Shown here: positions 2,190-58,240 of the stretch, piece after piece
Layout of the letters: every line of letters starts with the position of its first letter
How positions within the stretch are numbered: position 1 is the first letter of the stretch
From: Malacoraja senta
Lineage: Eukaryota
Assembly: GCA_038087875.1 (NCBI GenBank)
Contig: CM075995.1
Location: 994,001 to 1,058,000, forward strand
Reading direction: 5' to 3'
DNA length: 64,000 nucleotides
The notes under the pieces: model-generated
Database searches by the model: none
Seen by the model: the letters and a program-made list of their open reading frames with translations, nothing else
What the model was told of the DNA's origin: nothing
Made by a program: the position numbers and the translations under genes

Positions 2190-2310
2190 GAACACATGTG
2201 AAGTTATCATCAGTTAAATAGTAATCATCCAAACATCTCCAGTCCAGGCAAAGAGAGAGAGGGGGCAAAGTAACGCTGAGGATCACTACAAGAAGAGATG
2301 AGACTGTCAT
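2190..2310 (-). CDS. EGF: Pro-epidermal growth factor, first coding exon (signal peptide and start of the mature N-terminus); gene continues beyond the window start
   Basis: Hand translation gives MTVSSLLVVILSVTLPPLSLCLDWRCLDDYYLTDDNFTCV plus 1 nt, then a GTAAGT donor (phase 1). Signal peptide plus W-x-C...N-x-T-C-V matches recalled human EGF exon 1 (WSCPEGTLAGNGNSTCV-G, phase 1). Start context AGATTATG as recalled for human. Downstream of LRIT3 in the same orientation, as at human 4q25. Confidence 0.88.
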
Positions 2311-2524
2311 AATCTCTGTCGTTCTTGCCTAGCTGTAAAGCACAGTTCACTGTCCTTTAAACATAATTTCAGGATAGAAGGATAAAGGACAATGTTAGTA
2401 AAAGGTTAACAAGGTCTGTAGCATTTTCTCACTATTCCTAGGTCCATTTTTCAAAAAATTGTGGCGCTCCAGATTTTTGTTAAATCCAGCTCTCTTGGAG
2501 GTTTCTATAGCTTTGTAGAAGTAA

Positions 2525-2558
2525 AGTATGAAATGCCTGACACCCTTGTGACAGATTT
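2525..2558 (-). promoter_or_regulatory. Conserved motif in the EGF 5' leader
   Basis: Minus strand AAATCTGTCACAAGGGTGTCAGGCATTTCATACT closely resembles recalled human EGF 5'UTR AAATTTGTCATAAGGGTGTCAGGTATTTCTTACT; contains two TGTCA/TGACA motifs. Confidence 0.65.
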
Positions 2559-2737
2559 GGCAAGTTTAAAAAGAATCCAGATCAGCTAGCAATTCAAAAG
2601 TTTCTTCCAAATATTAAGCCTATAGATAAGAGCAATAATAAATGCAATTCTGCCCATTACTCCTTTAGTGAAGCATTTTCTTTGCTGAATGAAATTGTCT
2701 TTCTTGTCTCTCTAGTCAAAGTGCTTGTTTGCTTGCA

Positions 2738-2743
2738 TTTATA
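2738..2743 (-). promoter_or_regulatory. Candidate TATA box of the EGF promoter
   Basis: TATAAA on the minus strand about 430 nt upstream of the EGF ATG, consistent with a long leader like that of mammalian EGF. Supported by position only. Confidence 0.4.
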
Positions 2744-3914
2744 AGGATTCCCCTCCTCCACTAACCCTCAGCAGCACGAGAATTTTATTCACTCCACCCC
2801 TTTCGCTTTTTTTTTTTATAAACCTCTCGACATGAACTTCATTCAAACGTACATGTGGGCTATCTAATGTAGTTGAGAAGTCAAGCAGCGAACATAGAGC
2901 TGGAGCTCATAGTTTTCTGTCTGTACAAGTCTGTAACAAGCGTGTTGAATGCGAATGTGAATACTTTTGGCTGCCTCATTCAGAAACTAGAGTAAATATC
3001 CAATCTTTAACAGCCACCCGAGTCAATGGTAGTTCATCACTGGTACAGTTTTAAAAAGGACCAAGTTTTGGTTTACTGCTTAAATGCAGATTAACCTCAT
3101 ATAAATTCCGTTAAACATAAACGCCGTTAAATTACACAGATTTTACCAATAGCCCCTGTACTCAAAACGTACTGAGTTAAGCAACTTGTTACTAACCTAT
3201 CGTCATACTAGTTACCTGGACAAGAAGCTGAAACAATGTTTGAACTTCAGCTGAACTTCACCATCTTAAACCTACAATCAGTTGTTTGGTATTGAATTTA
3301 ACAGATAAAAATCCACCGGCAACCTGCCATATTGGCATTGTTGCCAAGGAAACTGCTTTGATTTCAAGTCCACCATGCTGGACTCCACCAGTAAGATGGA
3401 GAGGTAACTACTTAGTCACAAAGGCAGCATCTGAACCACTGGCACTGCACAAGAGCGGCATTTTTGAATGTGGACAAAGTAAGTAGACGACACTTTTACA
3501 TTCTGCCTCTCAGAAAGACTGACCACGTTTATGAGGCATTACATAACTGAGTGCCAGATTTATAGGAACGCCATGAAGTCTATAACTCTAGATGTTCTGC
3601 AGAAGTTGAGAAAGCCTGGGTTAAGGATTTTGCTGACACCTTTATTTAAATTATTTCTAGAGGTACGCAAAATAAATCATGCTGTCATTTCACAATGCTG
3701 TTGAAAATATTTGGGTCCTTGGGCTACATGCTTGCTAGGAATTAAATTACATAGTGTGGTTTATACAGGGCTGGCACACAGGTTTAACCCAGGGTGGAAT
3801 GCAGTTGCAGCCACTTCCACATTGCCTCGTGCCAGCTCGGAAACTCAACCTGGCACTTCCAGTCGGGATATGTAGTTGTGTGACTCTCTTTAACAGTGTT
3901 GCTAAATAATGTTT

Positions 3915-51169: not shown

Positions 51170-52920
51170 GAGAGGAAGGGGGAGAGAGGAGAGGGGTGGA
51201 GAGAGGAAAGAGAGGATGGGAAGAGAGGTGAAGGGGGGGGTTGGAGCAGGCGTGCACGAGTCGAGTCGCGGGCTGTGAAGAGAGAAGGGCAGAGAGAGAG
51301 AGAGAGAGAGATGGGAGAGACAGAGAGACTGGTACACAAAAAAAAGCTTGAGAAACACAGCGGGTGCAGCAGCATCTATTGAGCGAAGGAAATAGGCAAC
51401 GCTTTGGGCCGAAGCCCATCCTCAGACTGGTTTTCTACCAAAACGTTGCCTATTTACTTCGATCCATAGATGCTGCTGCACCCGCTGATGATATACAGGT
51501 TTTTTTTGTGTACCTTCGATTTTCCAGCATCTGTAGTTCCGTGTTAAAGACAGAGAAACTGTTGGCGGGCTGTTTTCCCAACGCGCGTTTGCGGGAGGGG
51601 GGGTGGGCTGCGGCATCGCACTCACACTAACCACCCCCCAAACTCACACTAACCACCCCCAAACACACTCGGGGGGATGGGGTGAGGGGGGGAGAGGAAG
51701 ACGGGGTGGGGAGAGAAGAGGGGAGAGGAAGACGGGGTGGGGAGAGAAGAGGAGAGGGGAAGGAGGGTGGAGAGGAAGGGGGAGAGAGGAGAGGGGTGGA
51801 GAGAGGAAAGAGAGGATGGGGAGAGAGGTGAAGGGGGGGGGTTGGAGCGGGCGTGCATGAGTTGAGCCGCGGGCTGTGAAGAGAGAAGGGCAGAGAGAGA
51901 GAGAGAGAGACTGGTACACAAAAAAACCTGGAGAAACACAGCGGGTGCAGCAGCATCTATGGAGCGAAGGAAATAGGCAACGCTTTGGGTCGAAGCCCAT
52001 CCTCAGAATGGTTTTCTACCGAAACGTTGCATATTTTCTTTGATCCGTAGATGCTGCTGCACCCGCTGATGATATACAGGTTTTTTTTGTGTACCTTCGA
52101 TTTTCCAGCATCTGTAGTTCGGTGTTAAAGACAGAGAAACTGTTGGCGGGCTGCTTTCCCAACGCGCGTTTGCGGGAGGGGGGGTGGGCTGCGGCATCGC
52201 ACTCATACTAACCACCCCCCAAACTCACACTAACCACCCCCAAACACACTCGGGGGGATGGGGTGAGGGGGGGAGAGGAAGACGGGGTGGGGAGAGAAGA
52301 GGGGAGAGGAAGACGGGGTGGGGAGAGAAGAGGAGAGGGGGAAGGAGGGTGGAGAGGAAGGGGGAGAGAGGAGAGGGGTGGAGAGAGGAAAGAGAGGATG
52401 GGGGAGAGAGGTGAAGGGGGGGGGGGTTGGAGCGGGCGTGCATGAGTTGAGCCGCGGGCTGTGAAGAAAGAAGGGCAGAGAGAGAGAGAGAGAGAGACTG
52501 GTACACAAAAGAAAACTGGAGAAACACAGCGGGTGCAGCAGCATCTATGGAGCGAAGGAAATAGGCAACGCTTTGGGTCGAAGCCCATCCTCAGAATGGT
52601 TTTCTACCGAAACGTTGCATATTTTCTTTGATCCGTAGATGCTGCTGAACCCGCTGATGATATACAGTTTTTTTTTGTGTAACTTCGATTTTCCAGCATC
52701 TGCAGTTTCCGTCTTAAAGACAGAGAGACTGTTGGCGGGCTGTTTTCCCAACGCGCGTTTGCGGGAGGGGGGGGGCTGCGGCATCACACTCACACTAACC
52801 ACCCCCCAAACTCACACTAACCACCCCCAAACACACTCGGGGGGAGGGGGGAGAGGAAGACGGGGTGGGGAGAGAAGAGGGGAGAGGGAGACGGGGTGGG
52901 GAGAGAAGAGGAGAGGGGGA
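51170..52920. repeat. About three tandem copies of a 585-bp unit
   Basis: CTGGTACACAAAA recurs at about 51330, 51911 and 52498. Each unit holds a GA tract and a hammerhead-type palindrome. Confidence 0.9.
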
Positions 52921-54584
52921 AGGAGGGGAGAGGGGGAAGAGGAAAGGGGAGAGATTGGGGAGGGAGAGGAGATCAGGGTGGGTGAGAGGGAGGGGGAGGA
53001 GAGTTTGGAGTGGGAGGAGAGCGGGGAGGGCAGGAAGGGGGGAGAGGGGGGAGGGGATGAGGGGAAGGGGAGAGGAGTAGGGGAAGAGAGGGAGGGAGAG
53101 GGAGAGAGGGAGGGGGAGTGAGAGAGGTGGGGGAGGGAGAGGGGAACAGTGGGGAGTGATGGGCAGAGGGGTAGTGGGGAGTGGTGCAAGAGAGAGGTGA
53201 AGGGGGTGGGGGGGAGATGGGAGTGAAGAGGGGTGGTGGAGGGGGAAGAGAGGGGGTGGGAGGGGAGGGAGGGGGAGAGGAGAGAGGGGGAAGAGTGGGG
53301 AGGGAGAGTTGAAGTAGGAGGGGTAGGGGCAGTCCATCTGTTTCAAATTCCTATCACCCCCAATCCTCTTTCTCTATTGCCACAAACATGACGACGCCCT
53401 TCGACACAGGCTGCGGGATGGGGGGGAGGGGCTGGGGCTGTGGCTGCTGCAAAGGCATATGTAAACGGATTCATTCCGATTGGACATCTGTGAGCATTGT
53501 GCATTGTGACATCATTCTATGGCTGAGCTGTTTTTTTTAACATTTTGATGAATGTTTGGTTTGGGGGCGGGAGAGGTATTTTATTTTAAAAAGTGTACAT
53601 AAACACGACCAAATTTAATCAGGATTGTCTATTCGTTAAAGATAAACGTAATCTCTTTAGAAACGGTAAAAAAATATCGGCGTTTCCGCGTGCTGTGTGG
53701 GCCTAGAGCGGTATCAAAGGGGATTTGTGACACGTCAGGCGGATGGCAGACACAAGTCAGGCAGACCAAGTGCAGACCCGTTGGGTCTGGACACCGAACG
53801 TGCGTTTGGGGCGGGGGGCTGTGACGTCACACTAACCACCCGTTGGGTCTGTACCTCCAAAGCTGGGTTGCGGGGTGTGAATCTGGGCACCCACAAACAC
53901 ACACACTCATCACACCCCTTGATATTATATTAATATTTAATTTTCTTCTTTTATTCCATCTCCACCCTATCCACTGACGAATAGCCCTCACCTCTCAGGT
54001 AGTCTCGAGGGGGGTGGTGCAGAGAGAGAAAATTTAATGTTAGAAAAAAAAATTGTGAGGTGGGGGAGGAGGAGGGTGAGAGGATGGAGGGTGAGGAAGG
54101 TGGGGAGAGAGGAGGGTGAGAGAGGAGAGGGGGTGGAGAGGGAAGAAGAGGATGGGGAGAGAGGTGAAAGGGGTGGGTTGGAGCAGGCGTGCATGAGTTG
54201 AGTCGCGGGCTGTGAAGAGAGAAGGGCAGAGAGAGAGAGAGAGGGGAGAGACAGATAGACTGGTACACACAATAAAACTCGAGAAACACTGCGGGTGCAG
54301 CAGCATCTATGGAGTGAAGGAAATAGGCAATGCTTTTGGCGGAAACCCATCCTCAGACGGGTTTTCACGAAACGTTGTCTATTTCTTTTGATACATAGAT
54401 GCTGCTTGCACCACTGAGGTTATGAAGCATTTTTTTGTGTACCTTTGATTTTCAAGCATCTGCAGTTCTGTCTTAAAGACAGAGAGACTGTTGGCGGGCT
54501 GTTTGGCTGTTTTCCCAACGCGCGTTTGCGGGAGGGGGGGGCTGCGGCATCACACTCACACTAACCACCCCCCAAACACAGGCG

Positions 54585-55510
54585 GGGGGAGGGGTTGAGA
54601 GGAAGACGGGGTGGGGAGAGAAGAGGGGGAGAGGGAGACGGGTGTTGGGGAGAGGGGGAGGGAGGGGAGAGGGGGAGGAGGAAAGGGGAGAAATTGGTGA
54701 GGGAGAAGAGAGCAGGGTGGGGAGAGGGAGGGTGAGGAGAGTGGTAGAAGAGCGGGGAGGGCAGGAAGGGGGGGAGAGGGGGGGAGGGGGATGTTAGAGG
54801 TGGAGAGAGGGGATGAGGGGAAGGGGAGAGGAGTAGGGGAAGAGAGGGAGAAAAGGAGGGGGGAGGATAGAGGTGGGGGAGGGGAGAGTGGAGGAGTGGG
54901 GAGTGAGAGAGAAGGGAGGGGGGAGAGGGGTGGGGGAGGGGGTTGTGGAGGGAGATGGGGATGGGTTTGGGAGTTAAGTGGAAGAATGGGGAGGGAGATG
55001 GAGAGGTGTAGGGGAGTGGTGGAAGTGGGAGAGAGGGAGGGGGAGAGGTGTAGGGGGAGTGGTTTGAAGAGGGATAGCGGGGAAGGGGACGGGGTGAGAG
55101 AGGGAAGGGGGATGTGGGAGAGAGTAATGGGGGTGGGAGGAGGAGGGGATGAGAGGGAGAGGGGTGAGGAGAAGGGGATGGAGGGGGAGGAGAGAGGGGT
55201 GGGTAAGGTGAGGAGAAGGGTAGAGAGGTGTGGGGGGAGGGTGGAGGGTGGCGACGGGGTTGGGAGAGAAGAGGGGAGGGGGGGAGGGGGGAGGGGGGAG
55301 AGGGAGACGGGGTGGGGAGAGAAGAGGGGAGGGAGGGGGAGGGAGGGGAGAGAGGGGGAGGAGGAAAGGGGAGAGATTGGTGAGGGAGAAGAGAGCAGGG
55401 TGGGGGGAGAGGGACGGGAGGAGAGTGGGGGAGTGGGAGGAGAGCGGGGAGGGCAGGGAAGGGGGGAGGGGGGGAGGGGATGTTAGAGGTGGAGAGAGGG
55501 GATGCGGGGT
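54585..55510 (+). repeat. Long G/A-rich low-complexity tract (a similar one at about 52840-53330)
   Basis: Strongly purine-biased plus strand with many G4-G8 runs; source of spurious Pro/Ser/Leu ORFs. Confidence 0.9.
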
Positions 55511-56448
55511 AGGGACAGTCCATCTGTTACCCATTCCTATCACCCCAATCCTCTTTCTCTATTGCCACACACGTGACGACGCCCTTCGACACAGGCTGGG
55601 GGTGAGGGGCTGGGGCTGGGGCTGCTGCCAAGGCATATGTAAATTGGTTCATTCCGATTTGGACATCTTTGAGCATTGGGCATTGTGACATCACAAAACG
55701 GAACCTTCATTAATATTCTATTGCTGAGAGCTGTTTTTTTTAAAACATTTTGAAATTTCCCCATTCCCTATCCCCCCCACACACGTGACGACGCCTTTCG
55801 ACAGAGGCTGTGGGGTTGGGGGGAGGGGCTTGGGCTGTGGGTGCTGCCAAGGCATATGTAAACGGATTCATTTCGATTTGTCACACGTGTCGCAGGGCGT
55901 CGCCACGTGTGTGGGGGTGATAGGGAATGGGGGAAATTTCAAAATGTTAAACAAACAGCTCTCAGCAATAGAATGTAAATTAAGGTTCCGTTTTGTGATG
56001 TCACAATGCCCAATGCTGCGGGGGTTGAGGGGGAGGGGCCGGGGCTTGGGTCGCTGCAAAGGCATATGTAAATGGATCCATTCCGATTGGACATCTGTGA
56101 CCATTGTGCATTGTGACATCACACAACGGAATCTTTACTAACATTCTACGGCTGAGCTGTTTTTTTAAACATTTTGAAATGTTTGGTTTGGGGGGGGAGA
56201 GAGGTATTTTATTTTAAAAAGCGTACCTAAACACGACCAAATTTAATCAGGATCGTCTATTCGTAAAGATAAACGTAACCTCTTTAGAAACGGTAAAAAA
56301 TATCGGCGTTTCCGCGTGCCGCGGTGGGGCGCGGGGGCGGTATCAAAGGCGGGGACATGTCAAGCAGAACGTTGGACGTAGAGACGTACAGAACGTTGGA
56401 CGTACAGACGTACAGACGGACGGCAGCCAGAGAGTTTCAAAAGTATAT

Positions 56449-56539
56449 AGATAGATAGATAGATAGAAGATATAGTTGGATAGATAGATAGATATAGATA
56501 TAGATATAGATATAGATAGATATATAGATATAGATAGAT
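56449..56539. repeat. (GATA)n/(GATATA)n microsatellite
   Basis: Directly visible. Confidence 0.95.
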
Positions 56540-56587
56540 GGGAAGAATCTGCCACCCCAACCCAGCACAGCAAAGTTTAATGTTAAG

Positions 56588-58240
56588 AAAGAACTGCAGA
56601 TGCTGGAAGGTAGACAAAAATGCTGGAGAGGAGGGGGGGGGGGGGGGCAGGAAGAAGAAAGGAAGAAAGGAAGAGGCGGAGACAGTAGGCTGTGGGAGAG
56701 CTGGGGAGGGGAAGGAGGGATAGAGCAAGGACTACCTGAAATTGGAGGTCAATGTTCATACGCTGGGATGTAAACTGCCCAATGCGAAATATGAGGTGCT
56801 GCTCCTCCAATTTGCGGTGGGACTCACTCTGACCATGGAGAAGGCCCAGGACAGAAAGGTCGGATTCGGAATGGGAGGGGGAGTTGAAGTGCTGGGGCAC
56901 TGGGAGATCAGGTTGGTTAGTTCGAACCGAGCGGAGGTGTTGGGCGAAGCGATCGCCAAGCCTACGCTTGGTCTCACCGATATAGAGCAGCTGACACCTA
57001 GAGCAGCGGATGCAATAGATGAGGTTGGAGGAGGTGCAGGTGAACCTCTGCCTCACCTGGAAAGACTGCTTGTGTCCTTGGATGGAGTCAGGGGGGAGGT
57101 TAAAGCGACAAGTGTAGCATTTCCTGCGGTTGCAAGAGAAAGTACCAGGGGAGTGGGTGGTTTGTGTGGGAAGGGATGAATTGACCAGGGAGTTACGGAG
57201 GGAGCGGTCTCTGCGGAAAGCCGAAAGGGGAGGAGATGGGAAGATGTGGCCAGTGATGGAATCCCGTTGGAGGTGACGAAAATGCCGGAGGATTATCTGT
57301 TGTATGTGACGGCTCTTGGGGTGGAAGGTGAGGACAAGGGGGGACTCTGCCCTTCTTACGAGTTGGGGAGTGAGAGCGGAGCTATGGGATATAGAAGAGA
57401 CCCTGGTGAGAGCCTCATCTATCGTCAAAGAGGGGAACCCCCGTTCCCTAAAGAATGAGGACATCTCCGATGCCCTGGTTGTGGAACACCTCATCCTGGG
57501 AGCAGATGCGGCGTAGACGGAGGAACTGGGAGTAGGGGATAGAGTCCTTACAGGAAGCAGGGTGGGAAGAAGTGTAGTCCAGATAGCCGTGGAAGTCAGT
57601 GGGTTTGTAGTAGATGTCGATCAGTAGTCTGTTACCTGCGATGGAGATAGTGAGGTCTAGAAACGGTAGTGAGTCGGAAATGGTCCAGGTGAATTTGAGT
57701 GCTGGATGGAAGTTAGTGGTGAAATGGATGAAGTCAGTGACTTCTGCATGGGTGCAGGAGGTAGCACCGAATGCAGTCGTCAATGTACCGGAGGTAGAGT
57801 TCAGGGATAGGGCCATGGTACGCCTCGAACAAGGATTGTTCGACGTACCCTACAAAGAGGCAGGCGTTGCTGGGGCCCATGCGCGTGCCCACAGCTACGC
57901 CTTGGATTTGGAAGAAATGGGAGGAGTCAAGGAAAAGTTGTTGAGGGTAAGGACCAGCTCTGCTAGGCGGAGGAGAGTATTTATAGACGGGGATTGGTTG
58001 GTTCTGCGGTCGAGGAAGAAACGGAGGGTTTTAAGACCCTCCTGATGGGGGATGGAGGTGTAGAGTGACTGGACATCCATGGTGAAGATGAGTGGGGGCC
58101 TGGAAACGGAATCATGGAGGAGACGAAGAACGTGTGAGGTGTCTTGGACATAGGTGGGGAGGGATTTGACCAGGGGGGATAGGATGGAGTCGAGGTATGT
58201 GGAAATAGGTTCGGTGGGACACGAGCAAGCAGAAACAATG
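56588..58240 (-). mobile_element. Penelope-like retroelement, 5'-truncated (RT + GIY-YIG endonuclease), frameshifted
   Basis: FTMDVQSLYTSIPH, LPFLDLTI and YYKPTD (PLE RT); NLIYCIRCSRCQLLYIGETKRRLGDRFAQH (GIY-YIG). Confidence 0.93.

Follow-up and report, generated by a model that had tools for sequence, protein, structure and literature searches.

Whether the 5' leader of the EGF gene carries a regulatory element that is shared by cartilaginous fishes and mammals, and what such an element would be read by, are the questions raised by the first exon of EGF in the skate Malacoraja senta. In the window, i.e. the whole stretch of 64,000 nucleotides (64 kb) that was analysed, a 34-nt motif can be read from the sequence of EGF exon 1 on the minus strand (positions 2558-2525), where it precedes the pro-EGF ATG at 2310 by 248-215 nt. 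This confirms the sequence-only reading from which the analysis started, in which a minus-strand motif had been placed about 215-250 nt before the ATG. The two TGACA motifs described there as lying 11 nt apart are also found, since the motif contains two TGTCA boxes on the minus strand (TGACA on the plus strand), at 2553-2549 and 2542-2538, whose starts at 2553 and 2542 are separated by 11 nt. The features of the region are as follows.

2525-2558, minus strand: 34-nt motif in the transcribed 5' leader, pro-EGF exon 1 (from the sequence; covered by the spliced contigs X21, X22 and X23).
2536-2545, minus strand: core GGGTGTCAGG, identical in a rat Egf primer (from the primer alignment; position 2544 is changed in organism G).
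2543-2536, minus strand, within the core 2536-2545: corresponds to positions 1-8 of Six1 12-mer sites (from a Six1 site table).
2549-2554, plus strand: left box, TGACAG (Meis consensus; seen only in batoids; unchanged among the listed changes).
2563-2569, minus strand: TTAAACT, shared with the reverse-complemented human rs4444903 reverse primer (a weak match).
2495-2584, minus strand: block free of indels in the distant batoid contig X23, flanked by an indel-rich stretch and by an unalignable one.
2311-2729, minus strand: 5' leader up to the reach of the spliced contigs X21 and X22 (X23 reaches 2815).
2190-2310, minus strand: exon 1 coding segment of 40 codons, with the signal peptide (the splice donor is at 2189, and the contigs pass into the next exon from 2190/2194).
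2724-2815, minus strand: promoter-like upstream block (TATAAAT at 2743, GCAAACA at 2732, GGGTG at 2799; gapless and with at most 4 changes in X23).
2347-2447, minus strand: three short AUG uORFs between the motif and the start codon (starts at 2447, 2424 and 2364; 13, 9 and 5 codons).

A query with exon 2 retrieved 15 of 58 candidate proteins, all of them named pro-EGF; the best of them, a skate protein 94% identical to the query, maps exon by exon to the locus, with its residues 1-40 at 2310-2191. Exons located downstream, in the neighbouring 200 kb, encode EGF and LDL-receptor class B domains (Pfam matches in 7 of the 8 frames scanned). The EGF exon 1 region is found twice in the assembly (G000:C19:994680-998300 and G000:C1:273021121-273024741, 99.4% identity over 3.6 kb), which could reflect an unpurged haplotype or a recent duplication, and was taken for an unpurged duplicate. 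Beyond this duplicate locus, no paralogous copy of 2490-2600 was found. Elsewhere in the window, region 52001-58000 shows a strong GC skew (0.36-0.63) and raised GC, and probably consists of simple repeats.

Intron 1 of the gene contains, about 22 kb below exon 1, a decayed extra calcium-binding EGF exon on the minus strand (L004 100-1, L005 10000-9970). Its lesions, as judged by eye, include a 3-codon deletion, the loss of the fifth cysteine, an apparent 1-nt frameshift near the end and a change of the sixth cysteine. The domain that follows the signal peptide is kept in sharks, sawfish, stingray, chimaera, three turtles, alligator and ibis, and this calcium-binding EGF domain is absent from the skate protein and from the listed mammal proteins; organism G splices past the extra exon and organism I uses it. 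The fact that sharks, reptiles and a bird keep the domain, while the skate and mammals are without it, suggests that it was lost independently in skates and in mammals.

Contigs X21, X22 and X23 cover the motif and, at the donor of exon 1, part from the genomic sequence to run into the next exon. These contigs derive from runs that were guessed to be RNA, two of the three being called probably DNA by an automatic flag. We regard them as spliced because their letters past the donor, when translated by eye, yield next-exon sequence (PPPYLIFSH in X21 and X22, IDIDECFDGG in X23). The motif is therefore transcribed as part of the leader, no less than 171 nt downstream of the most 5' base that the contigs cover. 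The 5' ends of the contigs disagree, being located at 2727 and 2729 in one study and at 2815 in another, so that they do not fix the transcription start. In human, the rs4444903 amplicon extends past the +61 site by 91-102 nt or 140-151 nt, according to the printed fragments. If this end corresponds to about +164, it would fall just before the presumed position of the human motif, and the distance of the element from the start would then be much the same in skate and human. The reverse primer of that amplicon has its best local match at 3015-3006 and not at the motif.

Transcription from further upstream bears on the possibility that the motif is part of an internal or alternative core promoter producing a shorter transcript, in which TTTAAA at 2570-2565 would act as a TATA box of atypical sequence, followed about 32 nt later by the TCA at 2540-2538. 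Such a spacing is indeed present in the sequence, and EGF promoters with an atypical TATA box have been reported in the portions considered here of PMC6968622 and PMC3573096. However, all three spliced contigs extend 170-260 nt further upstream, although a minor start would still be compatible with them, and it is the block at 2724-2815, rather than the motif, that appears as the better-conserved promoter-like sequence; an internal promoter is thus rather improbable. In block 2724-2815, TATAAAT is a TATA-like and GCAAACA a forkhead-like motif.

Conservation among batoids was analysed in 8 of 24 listed runs, by means of difference tables that for some runs list part of the changes. At short range, conservation of the motif above that of the flanking leader did not reach significance. 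Run X3 shows no changes in the 46 nt at 2525-2570 versus 1.8 expected (P 0.15), none of its 40 tabulated substitutions being located in 2490-2587, and X21 shows two (2544 and 2559) versus 2.3 expected (P 0.59; 27 of its 28 substitutions listed). Close relatives show no significant excess of conservation in the motif over the remaining leader. The more distant X23, which carries 62 changes over 2194-2584, is devoid of indels in region 2495-2584 (P about 0.09); all 13 gap letters, corresponding to six indels, are found in 2458-2494, and 2585-2663 does not align. In this contig block 2724-2815 is conserved at least as well as the motif block, and better than the coding part of exon 1. Among the changes listed in the eight batoid runs, none touches either TGTCA box and no indel alters the 11-nt spacing, the changes in organism G (2544 and 2559) falling outside both boxes. 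Upstream of the motif, region 2664-2727 has few substitutions (1 in 64 nt, P 0.03). Also, the 11 nt at 2671-2661 (minus strand) are identical to part of the human rs4444903 forward primer, which is located in the human promoter; this match was noticed post hoc and is equalled by 5 of 138 control tiles.

The link to mammals comes from a search of 8.4 million papers carried out with the motif itself. The reverse complement of an antisense primer for rat Egf (NM_012842), present in the portion of PMC11419832 covered by the search, matches the skate sequence exactly over 2545-2536, the core GGGTGTCAGG, in sense orientation. Over 2548-2532, 14 of 17 nt are identical, and the last 8 nt of the primer diverge. 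Neither of the two rat Egf primers translates into any of 131 pro-EGF proteins (no rat protein is among them), one of the frames containing a stop, and therefore the primer site is probably untranslated. We take it to be located in the 5' UTR, its place in the mRNA not being given in the primer paper. A match of this grade was obtained with unrelated 25-mers in 3 of about 60,000 draws (6 hits, 3 of them overlapping the motif itself), that is, 5e-5 per random primer; given the uncounted EGF primers in print, the overall chance of the match is estimated at 0.01-0.1. As a warning, the same kind of search rendered a duck ACTB primer with a 14-nt match that is due to chance, and matches to rat Hgf, human AR and p38 primers were likewise ascribed to chance. 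Of four human primers aligned to 2190-3100, one accounts for the 11-nt match at 2671-2661, another has its best match at 3015-3006, and two gave nothing above chance, as was also the case for the rat sense primer. A metagenome scan for vertebrate host DNA carrying the motif rendered 3 stretches, none of them vertebrate as judged by reading, two with what is apparently the same bacterial sulfatase-type gene.

The rat primer supports a putative core of 10-14 nt, rather than the full 34 nt, shared between skate and mammal, a homology that we infer from this one primer. The agreement between cartilaginous fish and mammal is thin, consisting of 10 nt of exact core, or 14 of 17 nt, in a single rat sequence. 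Of the gnathostome-wide, conserved cis-element downstream of the transcription start that the sequence-only reading had put forward, what is supported, by the rat primer and the spliced contigs, is a 10-14 nt core, rather than all 34 nt, in batoids plus one rodent. As to the two boxes, the evidence for the left one comes from batoids only, the rat primer spanning just the right one.

The pattern TGTCA-N6-TGTCA occurs once in the 64-kb window, a number reached by 20 of 100 shuffles, and the pattern alone is not above chance. A looser version of the motif pattern has 8 matches in the genome versus 85 for a reversed control; among the non-EGF loci, of which six were fetched, the two inspected are both in repeat-like DNA. 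Two loci (G000:C2:190355331-190357348 and 190459550-190461567) are near-identical and 104 kb apart, representing a local segmental duplication; where they match the motif pattern, the sequence is a common repeat-like one. Moreover, GGTGTCAGG is common in skate repeats, with 10 matches in 264 kb, at least 7 of them in one repeat-like context. It could be the case, then, that the motif has no special function, slow evolution near the promoter having been combined with a chance match of the rat primer. The frequency of the core in repeats and of the TGTCA pair, the close relatives without excess conservation and the occurrence of chance primer matches of 10-14 nt all go in this direction. On the other hand, the rat match had been predicted beforehand and was found in the same gene and the same orientation, at the low rate per random primer given above, and the X23 block is free of indels, so that we consider a motif without special function unlikely.

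Being transcribed, the motif might act as RNA, for instance as a small imperfect hairpin or a site for an RNA-binding protein that affects scanning, stability or the use of the uORFs located downstream of it. The local minimum-energy fold is a 7-pair hairpin with a 4-nt loop (-6.5 kcal/mol); by eye, the organism G change at 2544 and a rat change at 2546 fall in the loop, and the rat changes that hit the stem would still allow G-U pairing. However, the stability of this hairpin is matched by 17 of 200 and 39 of 200 shuffles, and it does not form when the whole leader is folded. The z values of the motif fold versus shuffles were -0.83, -1.34, 0.21 and 0.34, and that of the whole leader was 0.24. 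A search of Rfam rendered no family, the 7 weak hits in the region being all far below the gathering score, and no two-sided compensatory change was seen among the few sequences compared. Since the organism G and rat changes are located also between the TGTCA boxes, they do not discriminate between RNA and DNA. The RNA alternative offered by the sequence-only reading thus found no structural support, and an RNA element appears fairly unlikely.

Coding capacity was considered as well. A minus-strand frame that is open across the motif reads ICHKGVRHFI and could represent a conserved upstream peptide, but it has a stop four codons before the motif with no AUG in between, the rat primer has a stop just past the core, the change at 2544 in organism G gives a different residue (by eye), and the peptide has no match in the 131 EGF proteins; this makes it very improbable. 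An N-terminal extension of pro-EGF through the motif was found in none of the 131 pro-EGF proteins. Two carpet-shark proteins (P0008 and P0010) have an annotated in-frame N-terminal extension of 15-18 residues, and in the skate leader below 2729 there are five AUG uORFs of 3 to 23 codons (2447-2347 and 2676-2586, minus strand).

That the motif is a conserved DNA element is, in our judgement, moderately probable. According to the text available from PMC9456764, 93% of 589 hyperconserved mouse leaders overlap promoters. We infer that the motif acts as DNA because it shows no RNA structure and no AUG frame, and because conserved leaders mostly overlap promoters. As with the Hoxa9 E-box leader sites discussed in that text of PMC9456764, a DNA element close to the promoter would be the best explanation for the conservation of a 5' UTR. 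The EGF motif differs from the Hoxa9 case in being truly inside spliced transcripts and in having no E-box. It also differs in size from the h5UTR set, which is defined in the same text by an overlap of at least 250 nt with PhastCons elements of LOD of at least 500, since the EGF core comprises just 10-14 nt; membership of the motif in that set is therefore unlikely. The term 'EGF' was not found in 5 supplements of PMC9456764, whose coverage of the h5UTR list is uncertain.

Regarding the factor that could bind such an element, a SIX-type homeodomain half-site appears to fit best the core shared with rat, though it is not a canonical MEF3 site. The sequence GTGTCAGG at 2543-2536 has the T at position 4, the TCA at positions 4-6 and a tolerated prefix of the Six1 site, whereas position 12 is T, not C, in both the skate and the rat primer. 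In the portion considered of PMC3458543, C at position 12 is described as essential for binding of full-length Six1, and the isolated Six1 homeodomain as tolerating the loss of the 3' suffix, so that the motif could work as a homeodomain-only half-site. In the Six1-bound table of PMC3458543, 24 predicted sites open with GTGTCAGG, of which 22 end in C, 2 in A and none in T, and TCAGGCA has no occurrence in its Six1 site table. The Pvalb MEF3_2 probe, which contains GGTGTCAGGTAC, is bound by Six1 and Six4 and is required for promoter activity, as stated in the available part of PMC5011358, whose authors read the site in a different register, GACACCGGA, to which the EGF motif does not correspond. 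This probe has 9 nt identical to the skate motif and 11 nt identical to the rat primer. Expression of Egf is mainly postnatal. For this reason little weight can be given to the absence of Egf from the 2206 Six1 and 4108 Six2 target genes of E13.5 mouse kidney in the portion covered of the PMC8844495 supplement, a stage that is probably uninformative. The lack of C at position 12, the lack of TCAGGCA in the table, the different Pvalb register and the absence of Egf from the target lists are the reasons why the motif is not considered a canonical MEF3 site.

Compared to the MEF3 elements bound by SIX1/SIX4 (Myog TCAGGTTTC and Pvalb MEF3_2), the EGF motif resembles them in positions 1-8, GTGTCAGG, and in being promoter-proximal. 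It differs in having CATT (TATT in rat) where MEF3 sites have T-T/A-N-C, in its TTTC, which is 2 nt too far in skate and absent in rat, and in its location downstream of the start, inside the leader. From these sequence features, a SIX protein would be a tentative candidate for the factor on the motif.

A pair of TALE proteins (MEIS/TGIF/PKNOX), as in the sequence-only reading, is a rather doubtful candidate. The Meis motif is TGACAG/A in the part considered of PMC3261376, and the left box is a perfect TGACAG consensus, but the right box, TGACAC, is not a Meis site, so that half of the putative pair holds. The left EGF box is identical to the TGACAG of Meis/Prep sites in vertebrate conserved non-coding elements, although the EGF motif has no adjacent Pbx-Hox TGATNNAT or Pbx-Meis decamer. 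Furthermore, the motif is a direct repeat at 11 nt, whereas the TALE dimer site is palindromic. A T-box-like site had also been suggested. The T-box half-site is AGGTGTGA, with an invariant GGTG. Its fit to the motif is weak, amounting to 6 of 8 positions in the right half (5 of 8 in organism G, where GG becomes AG at 2544) and to 4 of 8 in the left half. With the T-box/Brachyury palindrome the motif shares the GGTGTCA core and the CAC-N4-GTG spacing, but organism G loses a G of the core, and the rat primer begins with TAC, which breaks the left CAC.

In the mechanism that we propose, the motif would be a promoter-proximal DNA site about 170-200 nt below the start, predicted to be bound by homeodomain factors. 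A SIX-family homeodomain would occupy the right box (GTGTCAGG), probably assisted by a TALE protein (MEIS, PKNOX or TGIF) bound at a distance of one helical turn to the left box, TGACAG. Occupancy by SIX and TALE proteins would then tune transcription of EGF in secretory or tubular epithelia. A speculative extension of this proposal, which we hold to be improbable as a whole, is that a SIX half-site and a TALE site at a fixed distance of one helical turn make up a composite element that has not been described before. Preserved in the first exon of EGF since sharks and mammals diverged, it would set the expression of EGF in kidney tubule and exocrine glands, with SIX binding in spite of the missing MEF3 suffix if given a TALE partner.

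In the literature covered on EGF promoter or leader elements, the parts considered of which centre on the +61 A/G variant as regards the leader, no description of the motif was found; footprints or deletions over it may already be contained in the classic studies of the promoter (Bell 1986, Fenton 1996, Mullhaupt 2000). As objects, short factor sites that are conserved within first exons are ordinary. What confines transcription of EGF to the kidney tubule and a small number of glands has, to our knowledge, been little mapped. A core preserved from skate to rat offers one well-defined site for mutation and for a look-up of ChIP data, through which the output of EGF could be connected with SIX or TALE factors.
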